Assembly: GCA_963796275.1 (NCBI GenBank)
Contig: CAWCKY010000002.1
Coordinates: 672,001 to 736,000, forward strand
From: an uncultured Acidobacteriota bacterium
GTDB lineage: Bacteria > Acidobacteriota > Blastocatellia > RBC074
DNA length: 64,000 nt
Direction: 5' to 3'
This document shows, piece by piece, positions 10,275 to 48,573 of the stretch (the stretch's first letter is position 1; each line of letters begins with the position of its first letter). The notes under the pieces were generated by a model, which was not told the DNA's origin, did no database searches, and saw only the letters and a program-made list of their open reading frames with translations. Position numbers and translations under genes: made by a program.

Positions 10275-10351
<77 letters not shown>

Positions 10352-10358
10352 CTTTTAG

Positions 10359-16224: not shown

Positions 16225-16256
16225 GATTGCTCCTTGATCCTATCTTCTTATAAACA

Positions 16257-17108
16257 CTAATCGATTTTGCTGAGCGTCCTTTGAAGCTCGTCGAGCGCAT
16301 TATTGAATTCCGACCATGCCTTATTCATCGACTGTACCTGCTCCCCGAACTTGACGCGCTCTTCCATACGAATGTTGTATTGCTTCATGCGATTCTCGAT
16401 TTGGCATCGGAGATCTAATATCTCCACCTCAAGCTGTGCAATCAGTATCTCGTAACTGGCCAGTTCATCCTTCAGGCTGGCGATACACGAAGCACATTTC
16501 TGCGCGTCAGGCTTCCGTTCCTCCATATAAAGTAGGTCTGCCGTCATCTTCTGCTTCCCCTGTGCCCAGGCTTTCTTCTGCTCCTTGAGACTCATTTCGC
16601 GCTGCCACATCGCGATCTGGTTGTCCATCCGCACAAGCCGTTCGCGATTTGCGATCGTATCTTGACTGCTCCTGCCGATAGATTCTCTTAAATACTCATC
16701 AAGGTCTCGCAGATCGGCTTCAGGATCAAAGATACCGTTGCGAAGGCGGTCGTCGATCCTTTTGATCATGTTCAGGCGTGTGGTAACAATCGCTTCAAGC
16801 TGATCCTTCAACTGGAAGGAGGCGCGCACTGTCCTTCCAATGTTGCTCATCGTGGCGATTGCATTGTTCTGTTTCGCTACGAGGTCATCGGCGGCTTTGA
16901 GCACCCCGCCCAGTGTTGTGAGCTGCTCTACCAGCTTCTGGTAGTGCTCCATCCATCGAGCCGCCTCTTCGACTTTCTTTTCGGCTTGAAGCACGTATTG
17001 CGCTGGATCATAGACGGTCCATTGTGCCTGCGCTTCTTCCGGGGGAATGATCAGAATGCCGATGAACAACCCAAGTATGAGTTGACGAAGCAAAGATGCC
17101 TTTTTCAT
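16257..17108 (-). CDS. VirB5/TrbJ-like minor pilin
   Basis: Signal peptide ending AQA-QWTVYDPAQY (the V.DP.N/Q motif of VirB5/TrbJ/DUF4141), helical coiled-coil body. Confidence 0.7.
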   Translation of the reverse strand: MKKASLLRQLILGLFIGILIIPPEEAQAQWTVYDPAQYVLQAEKKVEEAARWMEHYQKLVEQLTTLGGVLKAADDLVAKQNNAIATMSNIGRTVRASFQLKDQLEAIVTTRLNMIKRIDDRLRNGIFDPEADLRDLDEYLRESIGRSSQDTIANRERLVRMDNQIAMWQREMSLKEQKKAWAQGKQKMTADLLYMEERKPDAQKCASCIASLKDELASYEILIAQLEVEILDLRCQIENRMKQYNIRMEERVKFGEQVQSMNKAWSEFNNALDELQRTLSKID

Positions 17109-19969
17109 TGCTCCCCTCCTCTGACGGTTTCGTGTTGAAAGTCTAAAAGCGATTCATCCACTTCAATCAATCCTGCAGCGGCTAGTCCTCTCGGATAGAC
17201 AGCGGCGAGCCATCCGATCACATCAGCCAGCGGCCAGCCGGTGAGCGACTGCACCCGCGCCCTGGCGTTGCGTTCATCCGGGTTTGTGGCGAATGTCCAT
17301 AGCTCAGCCGGTGAGAGGTCCATCTGAATCATTTCGACGATCTGGTCGAAGCCCGATCCCAGCACCAATACATACTGGGCGTACTCGCCTCGAACATTCC
17401 TGATAGTGCCTATCGCGGCAGCAGCGTTGTCCGACAGCCCGGCGTCATCAATGAGCTTCGAGCAATCGCCTATTTGTTTGCCGATGATCTTTATCCCGGC
17501 GGTCCTGGTAATATCGTGCAGTTCCTCGAAATCCTCATAAGCTTGCGTCGCCAGCATCGTCACCGCGTTCTCTTTGCGCCCTTGTCGTGCACCTCGTTTG
17601 ATGACAGCTAGAATGTGGGGGTACTTGTCCCTGATCTTCCAGACCTCATCGAAGACGAGTAACACCGGCGCGCGCGTCCCGTCTTCTTTCAGCCGCCCGA
17701 TAGAGCGAACTACACGAGCTGCAACCCGTCCGGCCAGAGTCTCCCTCACGTCCTGTTGGAAGTTATCCAGGCTATCGAGCTCATACACGTCATATGGAGA
17801 ATCAGTGGCGAAATCGGGATGCGTGGGCGCATCGATCCAGGGATGGGCGCGGTACTTCTCAAGCGCCACTGCAAGCGTCGCGGCGCGGTCTCTCACTGCC
17901 GGCGCCTGGAAAGGATAGCTATCGAGCATCGCCAGCAGGTGCGAATGGGTCGGCTCATGTTTCGGCTTCCCGTGGCCGTTGCGAGGAACCTCATTCCGGT
18001 AGACCTCAGTCACCACATTGGTCAGGATGTCCTCGGCGATGTTGTCATCTGGCTTGACTCTCGCCAAACGCATCGCATCACCTACCACGAAAGCGATCTG
18101 AGTCTCATCGGGCGGCTCGCCCAACTCTAGCCCCGGATAATCCCAGATATTGATCGTGCGAGGCTCTCCGGCGATGAAACGCAGATGACGGCTCCCCACC
18201 ACATCTACGTGCGGGCCGAGCGATTCGCCGAAATCGACCGCTCGGACTCTCGCTTCTGGCAAGGTTGCCAGCACATCATTGATGATCCGTGCCATTAGCA
18301 CTGATTTGCCGGCGCCCGGTTGCCCTAACACTACGGCAAGCGGAGAAGCGATCTCTCCGCGGTCGAAGAAGTCCAGACCGATCAACCTCCCGGACGGTGT
18401 TGAACACAATGTGTGAGGTCTCCTGGCCCCGCTCCAGCTCGATTCGGTCGGAATGAGCGCGGCGAGTGAGCCGGCGACCTCTGTAATCTCCCTCCCTGTG
18501 GGCCGCCGGTCCGCTTCACCCGCCAGCCCCCGGTGATAGATGGCGCGTATACTGTCCGGGTCTTCACGCGCCGCCTCCACACCGGGGATAGCCTTCATCG
18601 CCGTCACCATCTGTTCGCAATAGTTGTCGAGAATCCTGAGCGACTCCCTCTTCTCTTCCCGCGTCCGCGCCGACGGGCTGTAGATAAGAGCGTAGAAACG
18701 AATTTGCACCAAAGCCTCGCGTGATCCGGTAACGTGCTCACGCACGTTCTCGAGGTCAGCGAGGGCCACCCTGGATTCCGGTGTCTGTTTCACTCTCCCA
18801 TCAGGGCGAATTGACGAACGGCGTAATTGCTTAATGCGCCGGTCGAGGAGCCTTGTCGCCTTATTCTGGTCAGGGTAGATGAACTCCGCGACGAGGGTAT
18901 GACGAAAATTGAGCGACGGATTGAGAGTCAGCGCTCGTAATGCGTCGGCGGCGACCGATGGCTGTGGAGGCGTGAACATCGAGACGACGGCCGCCGGATA
19001 CAAACCATGCATAACGTAATCTCCCTCGGCTCGGATCGACTCGCTGCACAAATAATCCCGCACGTCGAAGCCGTGGACATCGGGCAGGACTGGAATAGCG
19101 CGAGCATTCTGCTTGTGCCCGAGGTAGACGGCATCCCACAACTCTTCTCGACCAAAGCGCTGCAGCGACAACGGACATTCCCGTTCGATCAATCGGAAGA
19201 CCTTCTCGACGTTTCTTCTCGCTTCGCGTTCATCGGCAATGAGCCGCCGCACCACGCCGTCATCGGCCGTCTCCGTCCACTTTCTGTGGAGCAGCCGGGG
19301 AATGTCTGTGAGGCGTTGCCTGCGTAACTCCACCCAGACGGCGGGAATAAAGGCGCTCAGGCCACTGTTGGTGTCGTCGCCTTTGTGCTTGACCGGCACT
19401 CGCACCCAAAGCGAAAGTGTCTGATGCCGGTAGGCTCCCACCGCTGCCGCGCCTTGATAGAACTCTACATTATTCATATGCAGTCCCGAGGCCTCCGGGT
19501 GGGTTAATTCCCCATCTCCCCGCACCCGGAGATGGGCGAGGATCGCATGCCCCGGATCGGGGCCGGATGAATAACGGAATTGGATCACGGTACCCGGCGG
19601 TTTCCCAACCGCCAGCAGCCGCGCTAGTGCGTCACAGTTGGATTCGACAGTATGGTCGTGCGCGAGCATCGTCGGAGCGAGTTGTGATTTCCAGGCACAC
19701 GTATATGAGCCGTCGGCGTGCCGCAGAGCGTCTTCGCTGATGCCGACTATTGAAGAGTCCCGCTTTCGCCCCGGAGGCTTTGCCAGCCTCTTCCTCGCTT
19801 CTTCATCCCTTGCGATGCGCTCCTGCAGGCGACCATCGTCGCTCAGCTTCCAGACTGTCAGGTCCCGGCGCGTCTGACGGAGCAGAGGCAATAAGCGCAG
19901 CGCGGCGCCGATGCCGAATCCGATACCCGCGCCGGCGGAGATACCGCTGATGATCAATGAAGGATCCAT
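17105..19969 (-). CDS. VirB4-like T4SS ATPase
   Basis: 954 aa; Walker A GQPGAGKS, LVFDEVW Walker B, GARQGRKENAVTMLATQ; between virB3-like and virB5-like genes. Confidence 0.85.
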   Translation of the reverse strand: MDPSLIISGISAGAGIGFGIGAALRLLPLLRQTRRDLTVWKLSDDGRLQERIARDEEARKRLAKPPGRKRDSSIVGISEDALRHADGSYTCAWKSQLAPTMLAHDHTVESNCDALARLLAVGKPPGTVIQFRYSSGPDPGHAILAHLRVRGDGELTHPEASGLHMNNVEFYQGAAAVGAYRHQTLSLWVRVPVKHKGDDTNSGLSAFIPAVWVELRRQRLTDIPRLLHRKWTETADDGVVRRLIADEREARRNVEKVFRLIERECPLSLQRFGREELWDAVYLGHKQNARAIPVLPDVHGFDVRDYLCSESIRAEGDYVMHGLYPAAVVSMFTPPQPSVAADALRALTLNPSLNFRHTLVAEFIYPDQNKATRLLDRRIKQLRRSSIRPDGRVKQTPESRVALADLENVREHVTGSREALVQIRFYALIYSPSARTREEKRESLRILDNYCEQMVTAMKAIPGVEAAREDPDSIRAIYHRGLAGEADRRPTGREITEVAGSLAALIPTESSWSGARRPHTLCSTPSGRLIGLDFFDRGEIASPLAVVLGQPGAGKSVLMARIINDVLATLPEARVRAVDFGESLGPHVDVVGSRHLRFIAGEPRTINIWDYPGLELGEPPDETQIAFVVGDAMRLARVKPDDNIAEDILTNVVTEVYRNEVPRNGHGKPKHEPTHSHLLAMLDSYPFQAPAVRDRAATLAVALEKYRAHPWIDAPTHPDFATDSPYDVYELDSLDNFQQDVRETLAGRVAARVVRSIGRLKEDGTRAPVLLVFDEVWKIRDKYPHILAVIKRGARQGRKENAVTMLATQAYEDFEELHDITRTAGIKIIGKQIGDCSKLIDDAGLSDNAAAAIGTIRNVRGEYAQYVLVLGSGFDQIVEMIQMDLSPAELWTFATNPDERNARARVQSLTGWPLADVIGWLAAVYPRGLAAAGLIEVDESLLDFQHETVRGGEQ

Positions 19970-19970
19970 T

Positions 19971-20315
19971 TCAATTCTCTTTGACGTTGACGACCCAGGC
20001 TCGCCTCGGCTGTCCCTCTATATCTCCGGGAAGTGAGTGTCGCTGGATCGGGTTAGTGAAGGCGGCGCGCAAACGGTGCTGCAGCCAGAAAGGGCGGCGA
20101 CCGATTCGCGCGTAGTTGAAAAACGCTATGGAGAATGCCCCGGCACCAAGTCCGCACCACAACTCCAGCGGCACTCCCCACAGCTTCAAGTTGAGTAAGA
20201 AAGGCACCGTATAGCTGACGAGCGCAGCGGCGAAGACGAACTTCCAGTCCTCGACACGGACGCCTAGTCGCGCTACCGGTAAATAGATGTTCGGCCTGAT
20301 GGGTCTTGGCCTCAT
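19971..20315 (-). CDS. VirB3-like membrane protein
   Basis: About 114 aa from MRPRPIRPNIYLP, two TM helices, immediately upstream of virB4. Confidence 0.6.
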   Translation of the reverse strand: MRPRPIRPNIYLPVARLGVRVEDWKFVFAAALVSYTVPFLLNLKLWGVPLELWCGLGAGAFSIAFFNYARIGRRPFWLQHRLRAAFTNPIQRHSLPGDIEGQPRRAWVVNVKEN

Positions 20316-20332
20316 GATTCTTATTCCTTCAA

Positions 20333-20800
20333 TTACCAAGATACCGTATCGAGGTTGACGGCATTGCCCTGTGAGAAGCTGTAGATTAACGACAGGATCC
20401 CACCGATTCCCATTGCAAGACCGCCCCCGACCATCTGCCTTCCCCAGCTCTTCTCCATCATGTAGTTGACGGCTCCCCAACCGATCCCGGCCACGCCGAG
20501 CAAGAACAGTAGATTCCGCCCCCACCTGATGGCCTCGCGGACTCCGGAGCCCACCGCCTGATCGTTTTGACCGAAGATGCTTCCGCCCTGTACCTGCGCG
20601 AACGCCGGTTGCGCCAACGTCATGCCCACCAGCAGCGCCGAGGCGATCAGTGCCAGCGCCGGCTCGATCGATCGAACCAGCACGGCGAGCTGAATCACCC
20701 ACCGGCCCGCTCTGGCGGCCATCGAGCGTTCGAGCAGCTCGTCATCCACTTCACAGGCCGCAACGCGCGGACGAATCCCTCTCAAGCCTTCTCCGTTCAT
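20333..20800 (-). CDS. VirB2/TrbC-like pilin
   Basis: Leader ending AQPAFA-Q followed by two hydrophobic helices; first gene of the virB2-3-4 order. Confidence 0.7.
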   Translation of the reverse strand: MNGEGLRGIRPRVAACEVDDELLERSMAARAGRWVIQLAVLVRSIEPALALIASALLVGMTLAQPAFAQVQGGSIFGQNDQAVGSGVREAIRWGRNLLFLLGVAGIGWGAVNYMMEKSWGRQMVGGGLAMGIGGILSLIYSFSQGNAVNLDTVSW

Positions 20801-20986: not shown

Positions 20987-21769
20987 ATGAACGATAGAAA
21001 CCGGGTGAGAAGATTGAGATCGATCGGTGTGGCGCTGGCTCTGATCTTGGCGGCGGCACAGGCAAAAGCCCAAGGCAAGCAGCAGGATGACCACACGCGG
21101 CGAATGGCGGCCCGCATTGAGGCGAAGCATCTACGCTCGCGGCAAAACCTCGTTAAGCTGCTCCGCGAGCATCCTCAGTTCTGGCAGGAATTACTGGCAG
21201 TTGCGGAACGGCTGAAGACTGAACCTGCATGGCTGCTCAACGTGCTGGCGACAGAATCTCTGTTTGATCCGGCGACGCGCAACTCCCTTCCTGGACAGAC
21301 CGCCAGCGGCCTGATGCAATGGATCGAGAGCACGGCACGGAGCCTCGGGACGACAACCAGGGCCATCAGGCGCATGAGCCCGGTCGAGCAGTTGTCCTTG
21401 ATAGAAAAGTATTTCGCCCCGTTCCACGGCCGCCTCAACAGCATGGCCGACGTTTATATGGCCGTCTTTCGGGGCTTTATTCTTGATGGGAAAGACGAAA
21501 CCGTTATCGCCCCACTCAACAACTCGCGAAAAGAACAACGGATTTACAGGCTCAATAAATGGCTTGATTTAGATAAAGATCGGAAGATCACCAGGGGTGA
21601 GCTGGCTCTGGCGGCAACGCTGATAGGCAGGTTCCAACCTCAAGAGCCCACATCATCACTCCCCGGCAGGAATCTCAGCCCAACGCTGCTTGCACCCTCA
21701 GCCCCTCCTGACAGGAAGCCCGCGCCAACGCGATCGATCTATATTCGTCCAACCAAGCCCGTGGAATAA
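20987..21769 (+). CDS. VirB1-like lytic transglycosylase (SLT domain)
   Basis: Signal peptide; ATESLFDPATRN (catalytic ES) and ASGLMQW SLT motifs; EF-hand-like DLDKDRKITRGE. Confidence 0.8.
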   Translation: MNDRNRVRRLRSIGVALALILAAAQAKAQGKQQDDHTRRMAARIEAKHLRSRQNLVKLLREHPQFWQELLAVAERLKTEPAWLLNVLATESLFDPATRNSLPGQTASGLMQWIESTARSLGTTTRAIRRMSPVEQLSLIEKYFAPFHGRLNSMADVYMAVFRGFILDGKDETVIAPLNNSRKEQRIYRLNKWLDLDKDRKITRGELALAATLIGRFQPQEPTSSLPGRNLSPTLLAPSAPPDRKPAPTRSIYIRPTKPVE

Positions 21770-22549: not shown

Positions 22550-22882
22550 ATGATGGCAGAAAAAGTGATGGAGGAGAACGAAGATACTTTCAACGCCGAG
22601 GATTTACTCGACCTTCTGGATGAATTTATGGGCCGCCGCGCAAGGTGGGGAGGAGATACGCTCGAGCTTGACTCGGGACAAACCATAGCGGCAATCGGCC
22701 TCTTCGTTATCAATGTGGGTTGGATATTGCGGCTGGACGAGCATCGGTACATTCGCCTCCCGGATGAGGCGGTCTTGAGGGGAGAGCCAATCGGCGCGGA
22801 ACTTGGGAGGATATGTTCCAATGAAACAGCTGGAGATGGGCGGAGGAAAAGCAAGCGTCATCGAGGCGATCGTAAGCGTTGA
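22550..22882 (+). CDS. Hypothetical protein
   Basis: 110-aa ORF with an AAGGGAG ribosome-binding site upstream; no recognisable motif. Confidence 0.45.
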   Translation: MMAEKVMEENEDTFNAEDLLDLLDEFMGRRARWGGDTLELDSGQTIAAIGLFVINVGWILRLDEHRYIRLPDEAVLRGEPIGAELGRICSNETAGDGRRKSKRHRGDRKR

Positions 22883-23121
22883 GCCGGCCGCGCTTCCGCA
22901 AGCCCGGCCTTGTGGCACACGGATTGTTGATCGTCACATCGACAGCGGAGGTCAACGCGGCAAAGCAATCGGGGAAAGAACCCGGAGCCAAACGCAATGG
23001 AATCCCATGCTCGATTCATAGGAATTGCAGCGCCCGTGGCGGGATGGAAAGAGCCGCCAGGCTTCCTGTAGTTCGCATTTTGTGGATCGACGCCGCTGAG
23101 ACAGCAACAAAGAGAATTCGT

Positions 23122-23904
23122 ATGAGAGCAAAGGTAAATACTCGCAACCTGCCGGCAACTCTCGATGGAGCCTCCGATGGAACGAAGCAGTCGTCAAGTC
23201 GGAGTGAGGTTCCGGAGGCGGTTGTCGCGCACTCGATTCCTCACGTCCTGCACCGCGACCCCGTAGACGTAAGGACGATCTTGAGTCTGACCTGGATGGG
23301 AATATTCTTCGCATTGCTCTTGCTCGCGAGTGTCGGCCTGAACGTCTTCCAATATATTCGCCGTCCCGATCGCATAATCATCGATCGATCGTCGGGCCAG
23401 GTCCTCATGATCAACGACCGGGAGTACGGGGAGACCGGAGCCGTCTCGGTCGGCCCGGACAGGCCCGGGGCGAAGGAGAAAGAATACATCAGTAATCAGT
23501 TCATCAAGGCGGTCTACGGTATCGACCCCGCCACACGGGCTAAAGACATGGAGAGGGCGATACGCATGATGGTTCCGGAATCCGCTGGTAAATTCGCCGC
23601 GTGGCTAAAGCAGACCGGGATACTGGACAAACAGCGAACCGAAAGCTGGCAGGTCGTGTGGACCCCACAACAAACAGAGATCGATCGGACCGACCCCTAC
23701 ACGGTGCGGATACTGGGGAGACAGCAGATCACCAAAGTGGTGGCCAACGCCGCTCAGCAGGAGGCTCGCCAACTCTCTTTAACGCTCAAGCTCGTGGCCG
23801 ATAAGCAAGGCCGCGCCGAGCACAACCTGATGTCAGGATTTCTCGTCGCCTGGTTCGACGAGAAGGAAGTGGTGCCGGACGGTAAGACGCCTGCTTCTCC
23901 GTAG
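23122..23904 (+). CDS. VirB8/TrbF-like protein
   Basis: Single TM helix then RPDRIIIDRSSGQV and an NTF2-like alpha/beta domain ending GFLVAWF; precedes virB9 and virB10. Start codon uncertain. Confidence 0.65.
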   Translation: MRAKVNTRNLPATLDGASDGTKQSSSRSEVPEAVVAHSIPHVLHRDPVDVRTILSLTWMGIFFALLLLASVGLNVFQYIRRPDRIIIDRSSGQVLMINDREYGETGAVSVGPDRPGAKEKEYISNQFIKAVYGIDPATRAKDMERAIRMMVPESAGKFAAWLKQTGILDKQRTESWQVVWTPQQTEIDRTDPYTVRILGRQQITKVVANAAQQEARQLSLTLKLVADKQGRAEHNLMSGFLVAWFDEKEVVPDGKTPASP

Positions 23905-23948
23905 CTATCAACGGTTCCAATTTGTTTCTCGATTTTAGGAGTAAAGAC

Positions 23949-25175
23949 ATGCTGCCTAGCAGTCGTAGTGTCGTTATTTTCGTCTCTACTATCGCCATGA
24001 CGCTGGCTCTAAGCCTGGTTGCCACCGCGCAAGAGAGGCGGGAGAGGCGAAGCACGGTCGATGAAGCGAAATCCCCGCCGATGCCTGAGCACACAGCCAC
24101 TCCCACGCCCGTCAAACTCATCGAGCCACCCGGAGTCGACTATTTCTCTGGCGAAGCGAAGGTGGCCGTCAGCGGAAATCAGGTTCCTGTTATCCGCCTG
24201 GGATTATCGCAGTATGCGGCGACGATCATCGAATTCCCATCATCCGACCGGCTGTTCAATCTGATACCAGGCGACTCGAACCTGGTGACCATCGAGGAAT
24301 CGCCGACCAAGGAGACGGACCATTTCCTTATCGTTCGCCCCGGTGATGGGTTCGCCTCTCCGGCGACCATGTCCAAAGCCCGGCGCGAGCCGGCGACCTC
24401 GGTCATCGTGCAAATGCAGTCCGGACTGGTGGTCACGTTTCTCTTCTATCCCGTCAGGCAACTGAATGAACACGCCCACCGTGTCGTCGTGACATACGAC
24501 CGTAGCGAAGTAGTCGCGGTCAGGCGCGCCGCAGGACTTGCCGTCAATCTCGATAGCACAAACCGCGTACCCAGGCCACGCACTAATTCCCTGCGAATCG
24601 CCACGCCATCCGAATCGCCCGCTCCGGACGAAACAACTCCCGCGCAGGCCCCGGCCCCCCAGGCCCCCAGGGCTGTGGCCGATCTGGCCGAGATCGATAC
24701 TTCCGAGCCTCCAGCCAAGCGCCTCGGGAAGAGCCGAGATCCGGCCCGCACCGCCAGCCTCGCCCTGACCGAGGCAACCAAAACTCCCGAAATTTTTAAA
24801 AAGTGGAGCGAGACGGTCCACGGCCTGTCCCTCTCGGTCTCACCCATTCGCGAAGTGGACAAACACTCACAGCTCGTGGTCGTCGCCGTCAAGAACACGA
24901 GAAAGAGGGATGCGCGCATCGTGCCGGGTCAACCATCAATCTCGCTTGAAACGGTCGACAGCAAGAAACGTCCGATTCAGATAGAAGCGATCAGGACGCT
25001 CGCAGTGGACACGACGGTCGTGGATGAGGTGATCCGAGGCGGAGAGACTCAGTACTACGCGGTCGTTTACGAAACTCCCATTATGGGAGCCAGGCAGCGG
25101 TTGCGCGTATCCGTCGGACATATCACGGCAGCTGACGAACCGGCGACCGTGAATCTGACCTCATCGAATCGCTGA
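23949..25175 (+). CDS. VirB9/TrbG/TraK-like outer-membrane core protein
   Basis: AGGAG RBS, signal peptide, beta-rich N-domain (IRLGLSQYAATIIEFP), linker and second beta domain. Confidence 0.6.
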   Translation: MLPSSRSVVIFVSTIAMTLALSLVATAQERRERRSTVDEAKSPPMPEHTATPTPVKLIEPPGVDYFSGEAKVAVSGNQVPVIRLGLSQYAATIIEFPSSDRLFNLIPGDSNLVTIEESPTKETDHFLIVRPGDGFASPATMSKARREPATSVIVQMQSGLVVTFLFYPVRQLNEHAHRVVVTYDRSEVVAVRRAAGLAVNLDSTNRVPRPRTNSLRIATPSESPAPDETTPAQAPAPQAPRAVADLAEIDTSEPPAKRLGKSRDPARTASLALTEATKTPEIFKKWSETVHGLSLSVSPIREVDKHSQLVVVAVKNTRKRDARIVPGQPSISLETVDSKKRPIQIEAIRTLAVDTTVVDEVIRGGETQYYAVVYETPIMGARQRLRVSVGHITAADEPATVNLTSSNR

Positions 25176-25205: not shown

Positions 25206-26625
25206 ATGGACTCGAACGAATCCAACGACCTTTATCACAACGGCGCCGCCGGCGTCACCGAAGGAGCTCCGGGCGCACAAGACAATGACCTTGACCACCT
25301 GGACATCGAGGATGACGAGGATGATAGGCCGGGGGGTGAAGGGAGAGAGCCCGCCCGCAAAGGCAAGAGTAAGCGGCTCGTGGGCGGAATATTCATCCTC
25401 CTGATTCTCGTCGCTGCGGGAGCCGGCTTGTGGGTGATCTCCAACAGCCGGAAAACGAAGATCCAGATTCCGGTGCGGGACAATGCCAGGAAAACCGATC
25501 AATCAACTGCCCGCGGCAATGACGACTCCAATAGTATGACGGCGCAAGCTATTGAATCTGTCCGCAATTCGATTGCGACCCCGACGCCTGTGGCATCAGG
25601 ATCACCCATTCCCCCATCCGGAGTGAAAGGGACAACCGTGACCTCGAACACCCCTGTCACGGATGTTATTGGAGCCGGGAACACCGTCCGGTCACCCACG
25701 AACGATACAGCCGCCGGGCAAAGCGGCGTATCTTCGGGCGCGGGGGCGTCAAGGCGTGATGAAATCGCCTTCCAGCGCAATCCCGAGCGATCGATCCGGT
25801 GTGCCCCGACTCCCACTCCGGTCCCGGTGCGTCAATCACTCAGAGGAGAACCCGCTACTCAGCCAATACTTGAGCCTGCCGCACTCAAGCGCGTACTCGA
25901 CTCGGGTGTTGTGCTGCCTCCGTTCGGCGCGTTTCTCCCGGTCAGGACATTAGGGGCGATCTACACCCTGCGCCAGAGCATGGCCCGCTTCGAATTGACT
26001 CGAGACGTGCGTGGACAGGGATGGGAGCTGCAGAAAGGCACGCTTCTCATCGGACAACTACAAGGAAGCGAGCAGGACCGCGCATACATCAGCATGACGG
26101 GATTCATAGATCCATCCTCAGGAAAACTGGTAAAGGTGGATGGTGATCTCTTAGGAACCGACGGCGCGCCGGGCATCAAAGGCAAGCGGCACAAAGTGAG
26201 CAGCACCTGGAAGCGGGTCCTCGACCGCGCGGTGACCAGCGGCGTCGCCCTGGGACAGGCGGCGCTCTCAAGAGGGAATTCAACCACGATAGTTCTGCCT
26301 GGCGCGGTAGCTCCAGAGCTTACAGCCCTTACCTCGACCAGTAACCGTGAGTTCGTGGAGGTACCGGCAGCTACGCCCGCTTACCTTCTGATCACCCGCT
26401 TGCCGGAACAGGCGCCAGGCGTCGATGCGCCGCAGGTGGCTGCGGGAATGGCAGAGAACTCAACCTCTGCTTCTAACAACAATGGCGACAAGCTGCTCTC
26501 CGATGAAGAGGTGGCCCGGCTGATGGAATCCGGTTCGCCGGAAGAGATTCGCGCGGCGATGCCTCGCATGAGCTCTCGAGTTGCGGCAGCTCGCCGAGAC
26601 AGTGTTGAAGGAGACGAACAAGTAA
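25206..26625 (+). CDS. VirB10/TrbI-like protein (one-base indel near 26575 fuses it to the next ORF in this sequence)
   Basis: Acidic N-terminus, TM helix, Pro/Thr-rich stalk, LPPFG...KGTLLIG...DGAPGIKG TrbI-like domain; alternative frame ends ELRQLAETVLKETNK-TAA overlapping the next ATG. Confidence 0.7.
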
Positions 26626-27653
26626 TGCAACCGAAAGATCATTCAAGACCAAGCGTCAATCCGCGCCGCCTGCTCGAACAAAAAGGGATCGACGAGCTGG
26701 CTCAAACACTCGCCGATACCGGCTACCTGATCCAGCGACAGCTGCTCGTTGACCTTGCGCACACGCTGCGAAGCCGCAAGCCGCTGCTGATCGAAGGGCC
26801 TCGGGGCGGGGGGAAGACGGCGCTCGCCGAAGCCCTGGCCGAAGCCTGCAATCTGTCGACCTTCTACCTGCAGGGAATGGAGGGGCTGACCCTGGCCGAC
26901 GTCTTGTATGACTGGGACCGCGAGGGACAGACGCAGATGGTCCGGCAGGAGCTGGCCGCGGGAACTAAACTCAAAGACGCTCAGGACAAGCAATTCACGC
27001 GTGAATACTTGATTCTGGGTGAAGCCTTAGGGGCGTTCAATTACGCCGGTTCGCACGACGACGTGCCGGTGTTGATCGTCGACGAAGCTGACAAGCTTCA
27101 AGAGAAGGTCGAGGACATGCTCCTGCAATTGCTCGGCCGCGGTTATGCCCATGTGCCGCGCTTCGGCGACATCGGCGTGAGAGATCCCGCGCGGTGGCCG
27201 GTGGTGATCCTGCTTTCGAACGATATCCGGCACGACCTGTCGGCCCCACTGCGCTCGCGCTGTCTCTATACCTGGCTCGATCCGCCTTCCCCCCGCGAAG
27301 AAGTGCGAATCCTTAGGGCGCGAGCCCCGCTGGCTGGCCGGGAATTGGTGACCGGCGTTACCAAGCTCATCAACTGCATCAGGCGGGACATGCCTGGGGT
27401 CAGGGACAAGCCCGGGATCCGTGAGTCCATCGACCTGATCAGGGCCCTGACCCTGGCCGGAGTGAAGAAACTGACGGGGGACGTGATCGGCGAACACTTG
27501 TGCTACCTGGGCAAACGGCACAAGGAGCTGCTCAATCTGCGGCAGGGCCTCGCAAGACTTGAATTCGCCGTGCATCAGCCGGATGTAGAGATTGATGAGT
27601 GGGTGGCATGGGCCTTCGAGGATAAGGCCAGTGTGCTCGAACAGGCGGCCTGA
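26625..27653 (+). CDS. MoxR/CoxD-family AAA+ ATPase
   Basis: AAGGAG RBS then MQPKDH; KPLLIEGPRGGGKT Walker A, LYDWD, LIVDEADK Walker B, LLSNDIRHDLSAPLRSRCLY sensor/Arg finger, KPGIRESID. Confidence 0.85.
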   Translation: MQPKDHSRPSVNPRRLLEQKGIDELAQTLADTGYLIQRQLLVDLAHTLRSRKPLLIEGPRGGGKTALAEALAEACNLSTFYLQGMEGLTLADVLYDWDREGQTQMVRQELAAGTKLKDAQDKQFTREYLILGEALGAFNYAGSHDDVPVLIVDEADKLQEKVEDMLLQLLGRGYAHVPRFGDIGVRDPARWPVVILLSNDIRHDLSAPLRSRCLYTWLDPPSPREEVRILRARAPLAGRELVTGVTKLINCIRRDMPGVRDKPGIRESIDLIRALTLAGVKKLTGDVIGEHLCYLGKRHKELLNLRQGLARLEFAVHQPDVEIDEWVAWAFEDKASVLEQAA

Positions 27654-27663
27654 ACTGGAGAAG

Positions 27664-28332
27664 ATGATGGCTCTGAAGGCGCCGGCGCTATCGCCCATGA
27701 CCATAGTTTGCACGACGGCCTTGATCGTCATCGCGGCGTTTGTCGCCGCGAACTACTTCGGGCTGGGCGCAAAAGTGGTTGATCCCCAAGTCACGATGGA
27801 GCCCGGCCGGAGCGCGGCGGGGAAACAAGGATCCGTGCGGCAGGCCGCTATTCCAACAGTGATCGACGGCGAGGTGGTGCGGACTGCGGAGCGCATCACC
27901 GAGGCCACGGCGCTCACTTTTTCGGCCGCCCTTTACGCGGCAAACGAACAGCTCCGGGGGCGCACTCCGCGTACGGTGCGGGACTTGTTGGACGGAGTGG
28001 CCAGGCAAAACCTGATGCCGCCGGGTCTTGCGTTTACTCAGGTCGAAGGTGTGCTCGCTTCATCCTGCCCTCTGCAGTCGGCCGGCTGCGGAACCCTATC
28101 GGTTCGCTATCGCCCCGTCCCTTTGGGCATCGAGGTCGTCTCGATCGGAAGCAAACCCCAGGACGGCCCCGCGCTGATCGTGCGCCTGCCGGATGAGACG
28201 TCGGACCAGGGCGAAGCCAAATTGTTCATCGCCGATAGCCTGAACGTTGTGAAAGTGCCGGATCCGTTTGCGCCGGCGGCAGTGGTGATCGCATCCGGTT
28301 GGAGTCCTGAACGCTGGCGCTCGCTCAAATAA
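27664..28332 (+). CDS. Membrane-anchored hypothetical protein, weakly pilin/pseudopilin-like
   Basis: N-terminal TM helix; AALYAANEQLRGRTPRTVRDLL segment; co-directional within the transfer operon. Confidence 0.55.
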   Translation: MMALKAPALSPMTIVCTTALIVIAAFVAANYFGLGAKVVDPQVTMEPGRSAAGKQGSVRQAAIPTVIDGEVVRTAERITEATALTFSAALYAANEQLRGRTPRTVRDLLDGVARQNLMPPGLAFTQVEGVLASSCPLQSAGCGTLSVRYRPVPLGIEVVSIGSKPQDGPALIVRLPDETSDQGEAKLFIADSLNVVKVPDPFAPAAVVIASGWSPERWRSLK

Positions 28333-28349: not shown

Positions 28350-30503
28350 ATGGCCCTGGATCAATTCCTCAAGCGAATAGACGCCCGCTACCGGATACCA
28401 CGCCCCGCAAACGCCCTCTATCTGGACTCCTACCAGGCCGGATTTCGTCTCATGCGCGATGTGGGCGAAGGGATGCTGCTCGTCGCCTGCGGAGTGGGCA
28501 CCGCCTGCATTCTCTGGCAGATCGCGAATGTGCTGCTGCGGATCGGCGTCGAGATCCACGAATACATGCTCGCCGCTATGCCCGTCGCTCTGCTGATCAG
28601 TGTGGCCGAAGCCTTGTCGCTGGTGATTCCCTATTACCGAATCACACAGCGCTTGACCCACGGTTCGGCGCGATGGGCTGATGTGGAAAATCTGAAAGCG
28701 CTCGGACTGGCTCATGATAATCGGCGATTGTTGCCGCCCGGAGCACTGCGGATCGGGAGGCTCACGCGCCGGTATGAACTCGTCCTGCCGTTCGGCCAGG
28801 CCCTCCGCCATGTGGCGATCTTCGGCCCCCCCGGTTCCGGCAAATCGTCGAGCTTTTTTATGCCCATGGCCCGCGATTGGGCGAATCAGGGTTCCGCCAT
28901 CTTTCTGGATCCGAAAGGCGAGCTCTTCAAGCACACCGCCTGCCATTTCAGAAGAAGATACCGGGTCGACCTCTCCGATCCGAGATTGTCGGATCGATGG
29001 AACTTCGTCTCCGCCTGCAAGGGCGACGCGGAGACGGCACACGAGATCGCATCGATCATCGTCGGATTCGACCCGAACAAAGAATCGCACTTCGATCCGT
29101 TCTGGGCGCAGGCGGAGACCGCGCTGCTGACCGCGGTCCTGTTGCACCTGCCACAAATCGCGGTTAGCCCCACTCCGGCGATGATCGCCGAATACATTGC
29201 CAGCTCCGACCTGGCCTGGATCGATCGAGAGATGTCGCAATCGCCCGACCAGGAAGCCCGAGTCTATTGGGGGCTTTTCCAAAAAGCCGATAAGGAGAAG
29301 ACACAGGGAGGCGTCTTCACCGGGCTTGGAGTGAAACTCGCTCCATTCAGGTCGCCGCATGCCATGGCCGTCCTTCAATCTATAAGCCCGGAGGAACGCG
29401 CGCGGGGGCTGCGCGAGATCGATCTGTCCGACCTTCGCCAGCCCGGAACCGCCATCTATGTCGTCATTCCCGAGGGCGATGCGACTCGTTATCAGGTTGT
29501 GCTCTCGATCCTCTTCGGCCTGGCGGCATCCATGACGCGGAAGACGAGCCACGACGAGAACGGCGCTCTGGTGCTGCTGGCGCTCGACGAAGCAGGAAAC
29601 ATACCGCTGCATGGTTTGAGCGAAATGCTCGGCGTGGGCCGTGGGAGGCGTGTCAGCATCGTCCTGGGTTACCAGAACATCGGGCAACTCTACAAGCAAC
29701 ACGGACTCAACGGCGCACACGCGATCTTAGGCTCCGTCGGGACGATGATCTTTCTTCCGGGGCTCGACTCCGAGACGGCGCAGTATGCCGTCAAACGGAT
29801 CGGGCGCACCACGGTCCTGCAACATACTACTGTCGATTCGCCGGGGACCTCGCTGGACAACGAGCGGTGGGCCGAGACCGGGCGAGACCTGATCGACGCC
29901 GCGGAACTGCGGCAGATGGCGGAGTATCTGCAAGCCGTGGCAATCACCACCACAGCTCCGCCGATCAAGTTCGGGTTTCCCGAATATGAGAGGAGCGGTC
30001 GGCTGGCTCGGGCGCTCCCCCGCGAGTTGGGGCAACCGATTTCGCTGAAGGAGGCCATCAAGGCGGCAATGCCGCCGCGGGTGGAGGCGACGGCGGTGGC
30101 GGTGGACACGTATCCCGCCGACTTCCCCTCATCGGGATTCGGTGACGTCCCTTCGCGCCCACAGGAAAAGCGAGCGCCTGAGAGGCTGGCGAATAAGAAT
30201 CAGCTCTCGCTCTTCGACGGCGGCGGCGCGGGAAACGGCAAGCGCGCCACGCAAGATAAGCTCAAGCCCGGCGATCAAGATGACGCAATTTATTTCGGCG
30301 GCAAGCACCAAACCAGGAATTCACTCCCCGGCCTTTCGGAGATTGCCGATGAGAACGACGACAAACAGCGGGCGAGCCGGTTAGATCCGGATCCCGCGCC
30401 GCCCACGGAGCCCGCCCAGGCGACGAGGTCCCGGATCAGTGCGGCCAGGAAGCGCTCCAACCGGCGCGGATTCGGAGAAGCGCCGCCGCAGGAGGAGACG
30501 TGA
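28350..30503 (+). CDS. VirD4/TraG-TraD type IV coupling protein
   Basis: Two N-terminal TM helices, THGSARWA, GPPGSGKS Walker A, DPKGEL, DPFW, LALDEAGN Walker B, YQNIGQL. Confidence 0.93.
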   Translation: MALDQFLKRIDARYRIPRPANALYLDSYQAGFRLMRDVGEGMLLVACGVGTACILWQIANVLLRIGVEIHEYMLAAMPVALLISVAEALSLVIPYYRITQRLTHGSARWADVENLKALGLAHDNRRLLPPGALRIGRLTRRYELVLPFGQALRHVAIFGPPGSGKSSSFFMPMARDWANQGSAIFLDPKGELFKHTACHFRRRYRVDLSDPRLSDRWNFVSACKGDAETAHEIASIIVGFDPNKESHFDPFWAQAETALLTAVLLHLPQIAVSPTPAMIAEYIASSDLAWIDREMSQSPDQEARVYWGLFQKADKEKTQGGVFTGLGVKLAPFRSPHAMAVLQSISPEERARGLREIDLSDLRQPGTAIYVVIPEGDATRYQVVLSILFGLAASMTRKTSHDENGALVLLALDEAGNIPLHGLSEMLGVGRGRRVSIVLGYQNIGQLYKQHGLNGAHAILGSVGTMIFLPGLDSETAQYAVKRIGRTTVLQHTTVDSPGTSLDNERWAETGRDLIDAAELRQMAEYLQAVAITTTAPPIKFGFPEYERSGRLARALPRELGQPISLKEAIKAAMPPRVEATAVAVDTYPADFPSSGFGDVPSRPQEKRAPERLANKNQLSLFDGGGAGNGKRATQDKLKPGDQDDAIYFGGKHQTRNSLPGLSEIADENDDKQRASRLDPDPAPPTEPAQATRSRISAARKRSNRRGFGEAPPQEET

Positions 30504-31033
30504 ATCAGGCCGCGAGCAAAAGGCGGGTTCGAATGTCTCTCGTGATGTTCGGCGCATCGGCGGCTTCGCTCATTATCGCCTACGCGGCCGCGACCATCCT
30601 GGAGGTTTGGCAGCTGCGCGAGCAGACACCCCGACTCGCCGCCGACAGCATGGTGAAAACCCTCCGCGCCCATCACCGGCAAACGGGGCGATTCCCGAAC
30701 GATTTCCGTGAGTTGGAGGCGAGAGTCTGGAAACACAAAACCATGCCTGATTTCGGAGCTGACGGACGCAGTCTCTCGATAGCCAACTATTACTACCTTT
30801 ATCACCCGGTCAATGCAGGCGCCTGTACGATCTGGATCATCCCGGTGGGTCCGCGACGCGAAGAGGGCTCGACACACTTTTTGCTGCTCTATCCGGATAG
30901 CCTGCGACGATGGAAAGGCCCGCCGCTCTCGCTCGACGAGATCGGAAAACTTCGCAGCGTGCCGCAGTACGGCGAGATGAACATCCTGGGAATGACCGAG
31001 CAACGGCCGATCGATCTGGTTAAGAGGAAGTAG
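30500..31033 (+). CDS. Membrane-anchored hypothetical protein, pseudopilin (GspG)-like
   Basis: N-terminal TM helix then MVKTLRAHHRQTGRFPNDFREL and NYYYLY; overlaps the virD4 stop (GTGA). Confidence 0.55.
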   Translation: MNQAASKRRVRMSLVMFGASAASLIIAYAAATILEVWQLREQTPRLAADSMVKTLRAHHRQTGRFPNDFRELEARVWKHKTMPDFGADGRSLSIANYYYLYHPVNAGACTIWIIPVGPRREEGSTHFLLLYPDSLRRWKGPPLSLDEIGKLRSVPQYGEMNILGMTEQRPIDLVKRK

Positions 31034-31044: not shown

Positions 31045-34000
31045 ATGCGCGCGGTGGTCAGGGCGGTACAATCCGGGGGAAAAGGCGTCTCTTACCAGGC
31101 GCGCTATATCGCCGAGTCCGAGCTCAACCGCGAGCGTGAAGGGGAGAAGACGCGCCCGCTATTTAGCAACCGAGGCCATGACAGCCTCACCTATCGCGCA
31201 GCCAACCAGTTCCTGACCGGTGGAGAAGGAGATCCTCTGAAGAAGGACCTGATTCACCTAATCGTCAGCTTTGAAGAGAAGGATTTCGAGGCCCTCAGAG
31301 CGCACGATGATGAGCGCATAGCAGCGTTGCGGGAGGTCGCCCGCGAGGCGATGGAAGGTACGAAGGCCGATCTCCGCGTCCGCGACTGGAGATGGGTCGC
31401 CGGCATTCACCTCAATACGGATAATCCTCATATTCACTTTTTGATTCACAAGGAGATCGCAAGCGACGACCCGGAGCGCCTCCGGTTGGGCAATATCCCG
31501 AAACGGCTGCTGCCAAGCCAAGTGACGGGCCAGGATGGAGAGACTCACCCCACCGAGGGTGTAATCGGTGAGAATTTCGTCCGGGCGTTGGAGAGCGGGA
31601 TCAGCCTGCAAGCTCTGCGCCAGGGAAAGCTCGCGCCGTCACCGGCGCTCGCCTCGCTGCTAAAGGAGCTGGAGGTCAGCCGGACCGGACGCCAGGTGCT
31701 CAATTTTGAAGCCTCGTTGTACGAGGTCTCACTCCACAAAACCCAGGTGAACAAACAGAGGCGGACAAGCTACGAATCGCTTACCGCCCACGAACGCCGC
31801 TATCTCTCGGAGAGGATCGAGGAGCAAACACGGTCTCTCGCCCGCGAACGCGGTTCCGACGAGTCTGTTCTGCTCGAAGCGAATCGGAAACGTCCTTCGC
31901 TCGACGGACGCGGCCTGACTCGAGAGATCATCGCCAGAGGACAGGAGACCGCCTCCGGAGAGCCGCCCGACGTTCTTCACGACCCGAGGGCCGTCTTCAA
32001 AGATCGGGATCAAAACGACCCATACCACGAGCCGCCGCATGGCAAGGCGGGCTGGCTCTCGAAATACAGCCAATGGCTGCGTGATGACTACGAACGGGGG
32101 ACCGTCATCAAGGAACAGGTCCTGGTCATTCCCGCCGAAGGGCATGAGCTGAATCCGGATATCCATGACCGCGGGCTTTTTATTCATGAGCTTCGTTACG
32201 CTCTCAAGGAGATTCAAGATCCGGAGAAAGCGTCCGAGTTTCATCGACTCGCAACAATAATCGCCGGAAGAAACGCCGGCGCCGATGGACGGGCCGGATT
32301 CTTCTCCTCCTATTACGGGCTGCTTAAGAGGGAGGGAGGAGACGAGATGGGGCGCGAGCTCGCCCCCCACGAAACCGAGGCCCGCGCCGAAGCCCTGGAG
32401 ATAACTCTCGGCAAAATGCGTGAGTTGGCCCCACTGATGGAAGAACTGGAGACAGAGGTGAGTATCGAGACCCACAGACCCGATATGCTCGTCTCCCTGG
32501 AACAGGTTCGAGAGTCGAAACTGGCGTCCATCTCCGCCGAGCCGGCCTTTGGCGACCATGAAGACGGAGAAAAAGAGCTTGAAAACAGGCCAAAGGACGG
32601 CTCTTATGTCTTCAATACCGCCGCGCGCAAAGTGAATTTGCGAGACGAGAGCCTGCGCTTTCCGGCAGGACTCAGCCAGGAGACCAGGGAGCGGCTCGTG
32701 GCTAATACCCTGCCCTGGATCGACCAACAGATCGAGAGCGGCGTTAATCGGTCCGAGATATTGGTAGAGATCAACCGGTTCTACTATGAGTGGGCCGACT
32801 CCTCCAGGCTCACACTCACCGAAGGATTGAAGAAGGAGAAGGACGCCTATCATCGGATCGGATACTTCATCAAGGCCTACGCCGATGAGCGCATCAAGGC
32901 GCTGGACCAAAGCGGCAGGGGGGAGACACCGCGCTCCTTCCGCATCATAGCCGATGAGCCGCCTCCAGGACTGACCAAAGAAGCCCGGGCGCGGTTGGCG
33001 GAGGAGATACTGCCCTGGATCGATAAACAGATCGAGTCCGGCGCCAGCCGAACGGAGATATACAGGCGGGTCAAGCAGCAATTTCATCAAGTCGAAGTGA
33101 CGGTGGAGGATCTCGTCCGCCGTCCGGTGGCGGTTCCCGGCCTCTCTCGAGAGGCGGCTGCGGAGCGCTCCGGGATAGTTCGCTTCTGCCGTGAATATCT
33201 CTACGAGCGGCTCAAAGACCTGGAGACGCGGGAGATCAATCGCTCTGAAACTTTCCGTGAGGTCCATCGACGAATGATGGAGGCCAACTCCGTCAAGGAG
33301 ATGAACCAGGCGGCAGGATATGCCTTCAAGGAGGGACACTTCGATTGGGATAGGCGGACGCTGATCTTCTCCGGACTTGCCCCGGATCACCATACGCCGG
33401 AGATGCGGATACTGCGGACCTCCTTCGCACTCAGCCGTGAGGACCGGGCCAAATACGTGAAACAGATCGAAGCCGGAAAGCGCGAGCCTTCCCCGGTTCT
33501 CCAGCAGTTGCTCGTTGAGTTGAATAGCCGGAATAAACCGGAGAGCATCGCTCACTACCGGGCCTCAATCAAAAACGAAAAGATGAGAAACCCCGGCAAG
33601 CTCAAGATCTACGAGCTGCATAAGCAATTGCCGACCTGGGAACGGGACTACCTGTATCTCAAGATCGGAGAGCAGGAAGAAAGAGTTTTAAGCAGACGGG
33701 CCGCCCTGAGTGAGCCCCCAGCCGCCGTCGAGGTTTCCAGCAGGTTCCCTGCCCCGCACGACAACGAGTCGCTTCGGCAATACCTGGAGGAACGAAAAGT
33801 AAAAGAAGCGGAGCTGATCAAAGCCGCTGCCTCGCGTTCGCTGGGAAAGCGCGATGAGATCGCGCAGCCGGAAGGAACAGAGAAAGAGCTGTTCAAGGCC
33901 TCCGACTCTCTCTCGCCGGAAGAGCTCGCCGCGATCCGCGAACGGGCTCGTCTTCAGGCCTGGGACTCGCTCGTGGCGGAGGAGGTGTTTGATGAGAACC

Positions 34001-37000
34001 CGAGCAGGGAGGCACAGGAACTGAGCGACGCCATCGCAGAGATGCAGGAGGAGATACAGCCTGAAGCCCGGCGCGCCGTCACGATGCTTGATGAGTTCAG
34101 CCTGAGGACGACCGGTCATCCGTACCACGAAATCCCCCAGAAGGCGTTTAACGAACTCTCTCCCGAGAATACCAGTTGGCTGGAAGAGCACAAGCAATTC
34201 GCCGATCGGAATCTGAAGCGCCTTTATGACGGCTTTGAGAAGATCGACGGTCTACGGCAGGAGATCGAACGCGCACGTGGTGGTAGCGCACAGATGGCCG
34301 CGGAGATATCCGGCATTCCGGCCGAGGCTCAAACGCTCGTTCAGCCATTGCCGCCTGGGAGAGAACCGGAGGCCGCCGCTCCCGTTGCTTCCGTCGAGAA
34401 GGGGACGGGCGAACCACAGAAACCGCATCCTGTCCGCCGCACATTCGGCGAGCCTTCACGCGAAAGCCGGTCCTACCGTGAATACACGGCGGCGGCGGCG
34501 GAGATCGAGCGGCAGTTGATCGAAGAAGCAATTCGGGAAAAACGGACCATGACGAAAGACCAGCCGGAGATCACGACGGCCGATATTCTGCTCGCCCGCG
34601 AAGAGAAGCTCAGGATCCGCGCCGCCGCCACCAGGCGTGCCCTGACGCGCCTGGAGCCGCAAAGGATCCTGGGAAACGACCCGGCGGCGATACCGCTTCT
34701 CAAACTGCAAGGGACGGTGATACTCCTGCGGGACGAGGCGCAATCACGAGCGCGGGAGTCTGCACGAGAAGTCGACGCATTCATTCGGTCGCGGGGGCTT
34801 GAGCGTTTCATTGAGAAAAAGACCGATTACTACTATCGCGGCGACCACTTGCCGGAGAGTGCGCTTAAAGAATTGACGGCCGATGAGAAGCAGGCTTTCG
34901 CGACTCTTGAAAAACAGGCGAGCGCGACCTTTCGGGAGTTCAAAGCCGGGTTCTGGACCATCGATCGGCTCAGGACGGAGATCGACCAGTCCCGCAATGG
35001 ACATGCAACTCCGGCGGTGTCGAAGAGCCGGGGAGAGCCGGGCGCGCCGGGAAGCAACAGACCGCCGGAAACGCGAAGCAGCCTGAACGGATTCTGGAGA
35101 GGGTCTTCGCCGCGACACGCCGGACAAGCGAACGCGGAGATCGCCGTCAAAGTGACTGAAGCGCCAACCCCGGCGCAAACGATGAAAGAGACCGGCGGGA
35201 GACAGATACCGCCCGCTTTTCCCCTTGGTGAGTCTCCAGGGGAAAGCCGGTCCTACCGCGAATATGTGACGGCGGTTGCGGAGACCGAGCAGCGGCTCCT
35301 CGGGGAGCTTGAGCGGCAGTCGATCGAAGCGGCTGCTCGGGGCAGACATGGCATCGATCAAGCCGGGCCGGAAGCCGCGTCGACCGATATATCCCTCGAT
35401 CGCGAAGAGATGCTCAGGATCCGCTCCCACGCCAGCCATCTCGCCTGGGAGCAGTTGGAGCCGCGACCGATGTCGGCCAATGATCCGGCGAAGGCGCCGG
35501 TTCGATCCCTGCGGGAGGCTATTGCGCATCTCCGCGATGAGGCGCAGCCGCGGGCGTGGATGGAGGCCTGGAAGCTGGACGTCTTCATCAGGACAAAGGG
35601 CCTGGACGAATCAGCCGCGGAAAAAACCGACTATTTCTATCGCGCCGATCAGATACCCAAAGGCAAGCTGGCGAAACTAACTCCCGCCGAGCGACAAGAA
35701 TTTGCAAACCGTGAAAATAACGCGGCCGCGGCTCTCCGAGAGTTCAAAACTGGCTTCGACGCAATCGATCGGCTCAGGGAAGAGATCGAGCGGATAGATG
35801 ATCGCGTCATTCTGGGCAGGGACATCATTGCACATGCGCATTCGGACGCCGCCACCCTCGATTTCGAGATCGCCGACCGCTTTGGACACACATTCCGCTT
35901 CGAGATCAAGGATGCGAGTGTGGGAACCAAGCGCAGGATATCCGACCTCGACATCAGGCGGCGGGCCAATGCTCACGGCGACCGCGCCGCCGATGAGGGC
36001 GGTCTTGAGCGTTATGACGAGCGCCTCGAAATACGCACCCGGGTATCCGGAGCGGATATCCTTGACCATTCAACGACCCTCGACGAACACGGCAGAAAAC
36101 TCGATCGGCTCACCGGGGAGCTGAAGGCCGAGACCAGGCAGGCATTGGCTTCTCATCTCCACGCTCAGAGCCTGGCAAGAGAGGTGGCGGAGAAGTACCG
36201 GATACTGGGAAAACCGCTCCCGACGCCGCTGGTTGAGCGCGGAGTTCTGGTCGAGGCCCAGGACGAAGCCATCGAGCACCGCCTCGCCGGTCACACGGAA
36301 AAGCTCGAATGGCTGCGCGGCGCGCTCGTTGAGGAGCATGGCCAACCGATGCGTTCGGATACTGAAATGGCGCGGCTCTCGGCGCAGGTCTTCACTGCCC
36401 GGACGGAGTTGCGGGCACAGGAGACCCACGCAAGGCGATTCGACGAGACGCGCCATCTCAGGCAGTGGGAGATCGTGATTGACCGGCAAGGGCAGATCGT
36501 AACGGACAGGCAAGAGGAGATTGCGGCTGATAAGCAGGAGGAGACCAGGGTTGAAAAGTATTCCCTGGCCCACATCGACCGTGAGATGAAGCGCCTCAAA
36601 GATGAGGCGCGGATAGGTGGGGACCGCGTGCTTCATCTCGATCCTGTCCAATGCAGAAACGCGAAGGCGGAGCTCGAACGCTTCGGCCGGATCAGAGACG
36701 CGGTGATCGAGAAGATCGAGGAACGGCAGGGAGAGCTTCGGGAAAGAGTAGCCGAAGCCCGCCAGCTTCACGATACGCTCGTTCGCGCCTACGAACGCGA
36801 AGCCATATTCCGTGAGCAGATGGGCCTCGAAATGCCTGCGCGCCAGTTCACCCGCAGTGAGTTGGAGCGCGCCGCCAAAAACATCGAGACGGCCCGCGAT
36901 GCCGAGGGATTGCGGGACCTCACTCGGGAAGAGCGGCGATTCAATGAATACGCCGATCCCAAGGAGCGGTTTAAGCCGGTCGAGGAGTGGGGCCGAGCTC

Positions 37001-48502: not shown

Positions 48503-48573
48503 GGTTGTCTCCTTTGATTGAAATTGAAATTGAAGGAATGTACAGAGCGCAGTGCTCCGTACTGTCACGATAT

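Follow-up and report, generated by a model that had tools for sequence, protein, structure and literature searches.

A MoxR-class AAA+ ATPase in the VirB11 slot of a type IV secretion gene cluster of Blastocatellia

The 64,000-nt stretch of DNA analyzed here (the window; positions 672,001 to 736,000 of the forward strand of contig CAWCKY010000002.1, assembly GCA_963796275.1, from an uncultured acidobacterial member of the Blastocatellia) raises the question of what a MoxR-class AAA+ ATPase does in a gene cluster for a type IV secretion system (T4SS). Three families of ATPase, VirB4, VirD4 and VirB11, frame the present understanding of how these systems are energized, and the VirB11 class consists of PilT/RecA-like secretion ATPases. 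The window ATPase shares with VirB11/TrbB the operon slot after a VirB10-like gene and before VirD4, and it would likewise be cytoplasmic, probably hexameric and a third ATPase beside VirB4 and VirD4, but it has no homology to VirB11/TrbB, being an AAA+ protein without a PF00437 match. Gene order and sequence comparison indicate that it has a fixed place in a conjugative T4SS gene cluster of a Blastocatellia type, and we consider it reasonably probable that it is a catalytically competent enzyme that remodels or assembles a T4SS component.

The ATPase gene (26625..27653, + strand; ATG at 26625, TGA at 27651-27653) encodes 342 aa, and its translation contains the motifs EGPRGGGKT, LYDWD, DEADK, SNDIRHDLSAPLRSRCLY and KPGIRE, from which the original prediction had assigned the protein to the MoxR/CoxD class rather than to the PilT/VirB11 class. 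That assignment was borne out by family profiles and by the modeled fold. In the comparison of hidden Markov models that had been proposed to separate the two classes, AAA_5 matched at 49.6 bits (Pfam cut-off 22) and T2SSE (PF00437) gave no match; AAA_5 was also matched by all 62 aligned homologues. The top NCBIfam match was the MadB family AAA-type ATPase (NF047784) at 126 bits, which is below the curated cut-off of 475 for this CoxD/MadB equivalog; literature searches on MadB brought up nothing that concerned an AAA ATPase. Foldseek placed subunits of the NorQ hexamer and CbbQ2 at the head of the PDB matches to an AlphaFold (AF2) model of the protein (pLDDT 95.7; TMt 0.74-0.81), with E values of 7e-12 to 5e-11 and TMt of 0.77-0.81 for NorQ (9qh4/9qh8) and an E value of 1.8e-10 for CbbQ2 (6l1q). 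Sequence identity to these structures is 16-19%, and a search of PDB by sequence returned P-loop-level matches only. Taken by Pfam, NCBIfam and predicted fold, the protein is a MoxR/CoxD-class AAA+ ATPase. Its residues include a Walker A motif (G58-T65), Walker B residues D153 and E154, the sensor-1 residue N199 and R212, assigned as a putative arginine finger. G58, G61, G63, K64, D153, E154, N199 and R212 are invariant in the alignment of 62 homologues, and the catalytic residues from G58 to R212 are kept in both the T4SS-context and the CoxD-type clades described below; the enzyme thus looks catalytically competent. Because 641 proteins were retrieved as homologues at E<=1e-3 and the ratio of nonsynonymous to synonymous substitution (dN/dS) is 0.06-0.16 (eight pairs, with dS saturated in some), we regard the gene as genuine rather than a chance open reading frame (ORF), and as being, to judge from these ratios, under strong purifying selection.

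The order VirB10-like gene, ATPase, X, VirD4, in which X denotes a 222-aa protein encoded directly 3' of the ATPase in relatives, was to be looked for in other genomes according to the original prediction, and it proved to be conserved, recurring in 28 related loci (18 public loci and 10 class-level loci). The public loci, in which the window proteins were located by tblastn, have the VirB10-like gene upstream in 15 cases, X downstream in 16 and VirD4 in 15. Those without one of these genes mostly end ahead of it, the exceptions being L021, in which VirD4 lies directly 3' of the ATPase and X is absent, and L024, in which the VirB10-like gene and the N-terminus of the ATPase are deleted. The prediction had also placed the ATPase ahead of virD4; the order VirB10-like, ATPase, VirD4 holds, with X intervening between the last two. 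Across the 401 genomes searched in the phylum, strong full-length matches (at least 165 bits) were confined to the genome itself and 10 others of its class or family, and matches of ~110-137 bits were spread across the phylum. The 10 strong loci are flanked by the VirB10-like gene in 9 cases, X in 9, VirD4 in 8 and a VWA gene in none, whereas 17 of the 19 weaker phylum-level loci (one of them, L046, from genome G049, flagged unpublished) have a CoxE-like VWA neighbor and none of the 19 has T4SS genes. The position of the ATPase in the mating-pore operon is kept down to 35% protein identity. A quick maximum-likelihood tree (IQ-TREE, 45 rows) contains one branch, with SH-aLRT 100, that parts 26 T4SS-context sequences from 19 VWA-context sequences; the tree does not contain L020, L024, L025 or the genome's own CoxD-type paralogue, and its L023 row is only 87 aa long. 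By this phylogeny the T4SS-context ATPases are a clade separate from the CoxD-type paralogues, and some residues are clade-specific, an example being position 266, which is R in the T4SS clade and A in the CoxD type.

The 120 listed of the 641 homologues are 69-88% identical to the window protein and almost all 342 aa long, and those with names are from Acidobacteria or Blastocatellia and are called MoxR-like ATPases. Among ten representatives at greater distance, three are named, all as Pyrinomonadaceae or "MoxR-like ATPase". The clade comprises roughly 60-80 representative clusters; 81 were retrieved at E<=1e-30, the top CoxD types among them. A plasmid database gave 61 matching records, all below 60% identity, and among the records listed there was no member of the T4SS clade; those were CoxD-type, with genes for CO or xanthine dehydrogenase or a VWA protein next to them. 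The named T4SS-context loci are all from Blastocatellia or Acidobacteria except L009, L012 and L018. These three are near-identical clusters on contigs of metagenome-assembled genomes labeled Gammaproteobacteria, Clostridia and Heliobacteriaceae, respectively, and the labels could reflect mis-binning, mislabeling or transfer across phyla.

CoxD-type ATPases mature molybdenum enzymes together with a CoxE-type VWA protein, and the genome has an ATPase of this type of its own. It lies on another contig in an XdhC_C - MobA-like - AAA_5 - VWA_CoxE cluster, which is the classical CoxD/CoxE arrangement, and at 280 bits it is the genome's best match to the MadB family; it is 37% identical to the ATPase of the T4SS cluster. 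The window ATPase is like the CoxD type in its AAA_5 fold class and its catalytic motifs, with 33-37% identity to CoxD-type paralogues, and unlike it in its separate clade, its T4SS context, the absence of a VWA neighbor and its score of 126 bits against an equivalog cut-off of 475. CoxD itself is described as an AAA+ ATPase in metal-cluster assembly (PMC3471820). The best structural matches to our model, NorQ and CbbQ, belong to NorQ/NorD and CbbQ/CbbO systems that have VWA adaptors, whereas the window ATPase is without one and its client is presumably a T4SS part.

No VirB11 homologue was found in the element, and the absence of an adjacent VWA protein, noted in the original prediction, stands after wider searches. 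A six-frame PF00437 search of the whole genome found a sole locus, C6:1118604-1119774, on another contig, and tblastn with the T2SSE protein encoded there gave no match below E 1.5, either in the window or among the 18 related loci. No VWA Pfam match was obtained among the neighbors of the ATPase gene, VWA_CoxE (PF05762) has 17 matches in the genome and none on the window's contig, a VWA gene is present in 0 of the 10 class-level T4SS-context loci, and the predicted structure of X is clearly not a VWA fold.

As assembled, the window does not present the ATPase as a separate gene, and 25206..27653 is instead a single open frame of 815 aa that runs from the VirB10-like gene (25206..26625, + strand, with an ancestral stop TAA at 26623-26625) into the ATPase. 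ATG 26625 shares the frame of the upstream gene, and the TAATG at 26623-27 holds its TAA in another frame that is open only downstream of a TGA at 26569-71. This short TAA-bearing frame encodes ALELRQLAETVLKETNK and then stops, and the encoded peptide is the conserved tail with which the VirB10-like protein ends; the relatives' VirB10-like ORF has a matching tail (...PRMTPELRRIAEAVLKEQ..) in 14 of 14 loci, and in all 14 the offset of its stop from the ATPase ATG is between -4 and +13 nt. Relative to all relatives, the window has an extra base within 26573..26577 (+ strand), directly after the conserved PRM codons, which shifts the VirB10-like frame into that of the ATPase. Contigs from two different studies, both about 98% identical to the window, have one letter fewer at this place: an 83-nt contig from run X2 at 26573 and a 386-nt contig from run X4, with 8 other differences, at 26577. 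Essential genes cannot be pseudogenes, yet rpoB of the same assembly is broken into 7 pieces that occupy different open frames (4 pieces have internal stops), and rpoC into 5 pieces, 2 with internal stops (G000:C6:1266086-1274032, outside the window), so the assembly carries indel errors. Such errors are frequent, and the frameshifts, fusions and split genes of this genome are doubtful as assembled. Because the 14 relatives and the two near-identical contigs are unfused and rpoB and rpoC are frame-broken, we read the 815-aa ORF as very probably an assembly artefact.

The fusion could alternatively be genuine, either through a pseudogenising mutation of the VirB10-like gene or as a functional VirB10-like-ATPase protein, which is what the single frame in the assembled sequence would suggest; moreover, the junction lies outside the coverage of the best-matching sequencing run (X1), and the base call is uncheckable there. 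Among the runs listed as carrying the sequence there was none of RNA. We consider this quite unlikely, since in addition to the unfused state of all relatives and both contigs and the broken rpoB and rpoC, a search for longer homologues gave no VirB10-ATPase fusion, only two decayed ATPase-VirD4 ones, and an ATPase that follows the periplasmic portion of the VirB10-like protein in one chain would by its topology be exported away from ATP. Most likely the natural state is one of separate VirB10-like and ATPase genes that are translationally coupled through TAATG. Coupling of this kind was part of the original prediction, of which the TAATG and the AAGGAG are indeed present (the latter a Shine-Dalgarno-like hexamer at 26608..26613, + strand, 11 nt from ATG 26625) and the stops of the relatives abut the ATG, although the TAA is out of frame in the window. 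The apparent VirB10-ATPase fusion of this assembly should not enter databases.

How the ATPase would serve the T4SS is suggested by its history and its place. A T4SS-associated clade would have split from the CoxD-type ATPases, lost the VWA partner and become embedded between the VirB10/TraM-like gene and the X-VirD4 pair. Most likely the protein would be a hexameric ring that lies against the inner membrane on its cytoplasmic side and uses ATP to remodel or assemble some part of the T4SS. Candidate clients are VirD4, VirB4 and the VirB10-like protein with its cytoplasmic tail, and the relaxase is a further possibility. With VirB4 and VirD4 it would be the third ATPase, in the role that VirB11 has in VirB/D4 systems. 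The role of T4SS motor or assembly chaperone is one that we infer from position, as did the original prediction. If true, T4SS machines would gain a fourth kind of ATPase, across a whole lineage of acidobacterial elements, and MoxR ATPases would have a client other than a metal enzyme that has no link to a VWA protein. Literature searches on MoxR with T4SS, VirD4, conjugative elements or Acidobacteriota, which covered listings and the openings of abstracts, gave no description of a MoxR-class ATPase in a T4SS, in agreement with the earlier remark that no characterized example was known. The findings suggest an undescribed way of powering or assembling T4SS in soil Acidobacteria, and they distinguish a T4SS type, poorly annotated as yet, in bacteria that are abundant in soil, which bears on studies of gene flow there.

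Several points weigh against a secretion role for the ATPase. Its interactions and function are predictions from gene context. The F-type, Bacteroides-type and Gram-positive T4SS classes work without VirB11, so occupation of the VirB11 slot is no proof of replacement and a third ATPase is not required. The MoxR ATPases known from earlier studies work by way of a VWA adaptor, a partner that was not detected at the cluster. The label of the VirB10-like protein is built on marginal Pfam scores, and a profile of its family had no meaningful match among PDB sequences; its cytoplasmic N-terminal tail shows little conservation (mean column identity 37%), so that docking there is only weakly suggested. 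Mobility of this copy of the cluster is putative: no repeat of the tRNA-Pro region described below, of at least 14 nt, was found elsewhere in the window, so that borders were not found, and the window's stretch of contig C2 contains no tyrosine integrase.

More specific and more general accounts of the ATPase can be set beside that of a remodeling or assembly factor. It is possible, though we hold it to be doubtful, that a clade-7 AAA+ ring is the third T4SS motor and has replaced PilT-class VirB11, with X in the place of the VWA adaptor. Replacement of VirB11 is only hypothetical at this point, and a complex prediction of VirD4 residues 100-545 with the ATPase gave a score of 0.00, which speaks neither for nor against binding; were the replacement real, it would be the first case of a MoxR-type ATPase that energizes or assembles a T4SS, and also the first of a MoxR module that is dedicated to a secretion machine and has an adaptor other than a VWA protein. 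The ATPase could also act on the substrate side rather than on the channel, unfolding or remodeling the 2177-aa relaxase-like protein (31045..37578, + strand) or the relaxosome and handing it to VirD4. That ATPase, VirD4 and relaxase-like gene share an operon, that the NorQ and CbbQ rings, the closest folds, act on client proteins, and that protein substrates of T4SS must be unfolded for transfer would all fit such a chaperone, but the tightest coupling of the ATPase is to the VirB10-like gene and not to the relaxase gene, and relatives retain the ATPase though the relaxase-like protein varies greatly in matched length, which leaves this account unlikely. Finally, the gene might be a passenger that serves regulation, element maintenance or anti-defense, its position being a historical accident, as one could hold for as long as the link to secretion is drawn from position. 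The PADLOC defense families gave P-loop-level matches to the ATPase, none of them full-length; the former can be counted for such a passenger and the latter against it. The conservation of the mating-pore operon position down to 35% protein identity, the translational coupling and the strong purifying selection make a passenger very improbable. Our preferred reading therefore continues to be that of a T4SS component that remodels or assembles another.

In the VirB10-like protein an acidic cytoplasmic N-terminal tail precedes a transmembrane helix (about residues 58-78), which a Pro/Thr-rich linker connects to a TrbI/TraM-like domain (residues 241-388). The protein scored 25.2-25.9 bits against Transposon_TraM (Pfam cut-off 25.1) and 24 bits against TrbI, below the cut-off of 35, and within its family (n=12) TraM was matched by 5 members and TrbI by 3. 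In this marginal Transposon_TraM match and in the absence of VirB11 the cluster is like the T4SS of Bacteroides-type conjugative transposons, whose VirB10 analogue is TraM; most other components here match no family, and we know of no MoxR-type ATPase in a Bacteroides-type T4SS.

Protein X (27664..28332, + strand; 222 aa) comprises an N-terminal transmembrane helix, a disordered linker and an alpha/beta domain, and has 23 invariant columns in an alignment of 15 sequences. It has no match in Pfam, NCBIfam or PADLOC. In the model (pLDDT 80) the transmembrane helix and the disordered linker are followed by a long helix and a beta sheet; Foldseek of this model against PDB returned nothing at E<=0.001, and an ESM Atlas search found unnamed clusters only, with scores below 0.9. 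A wider structural search was headed by type IV pilins and minor pilins (PilA4 with Z 8.1, PilX 8.0 and PilE 7.7, followed by ComP with 7.0 and PilV with 6.9). Because these Z values are middling, we treat a pilin-like fold of the modeled X as a lead. From its charge distribution, the globular part of X is probably periplasmic. VirD4 (28350..30503, + strand) is a coupling protein that matches PF02534, PF12696 and PF10412 (125.5, 69 and 64.8 bits, respectively), and is followed, also in relatives, by a 177-aa protein with an N-terminal transmembrane helix (30500..31033, + strand). The 177-aa protein is weakly similar to X (23% identity over 108 aa, E 0.019 in a single comparison). VirD4 may be flanked by two pilin-like membrane proteins, X and the 177-aa protein.

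Rearrangements around the ATPase occur in several related loci. In three contigs (L021:3840-6190 and those of proteins P0276 and P0277), the ATPase runs straight into VirD4, with X and the membrane part of VirD4 deleted and the ATPase damaged. We rejected such ATPase-VirD4 fusions as evidence of interaction, since Walker A is lost in one and another has an internal deletion; they look like decaying elements and not functional fusions. The deletion in L024 (516-1994) fuses the gene for a 417-aa protein to the C-terminal third of the ATPase, and L015 (11026-11741) has a gap of ~700 nt between the ATPase and X.

Other parts of the cluster are recognizable to varying degrees, most of its components having no family match. 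On the 5' side of the VirB10-like gene are two conserved genes (22879..25175, + strand) for proteins of 341 aa and 417 aa; the 341-aa gene (longest ORF) encodes a transmembrane helix, and the 417-aa product has a signal-peptide-like N-terminus. Neither protein has a family match, and from position alone they could be VirB8- and VirB9-like. Further upstream is a VirB1-like SLT lytic transglycosylase (20987..21769, + strand), and beyond it a divergent operon of four genes (14371..20702, - strand) for a 243-aa protein, a VirB4-family ATPase, a 283-aa coiled-coil protein with a weak TrbJ match and a 617-aa protein. The VirB4-family ATPase (17105..19969, - strand; 954 aa) matched TIGR02746 and TIGR00929 at 71 and 64 bits, respectively (E 4e-20 and 8.5e-18), which is below the equivalog cut-offs and assigns it at the family level only. 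The N-terminal relaxase match of the 2177-aa protein is weak, with scores just under the cut-offs for both MobL (25.6 bits, cut-off 28.5) and Relaxase (24.1 bits, cut-off 24.6). An SSB-domain protein of 335 aa (47834..48841, - strand), encoded downstream of the cluster, possibly belongs to the same element. On the other side, a tRNA-Pro (GGG) gene at 10278..10352, followed by a GC-rich hairpin, lies ~4 kb ahead of the first conserved gene of the T4SS cluster. The genome contains two further copies of the cluster, at G000:C3:~58000-70000 (- strand) and G000:C4:~1517000-1529000 (+ strand), whose ATPases are 87-89% and 69-77% identical, respectively; the ATPase and several of its neighbors are frame-split in these copies, which may be decayed or may carry more of the assembly errors.

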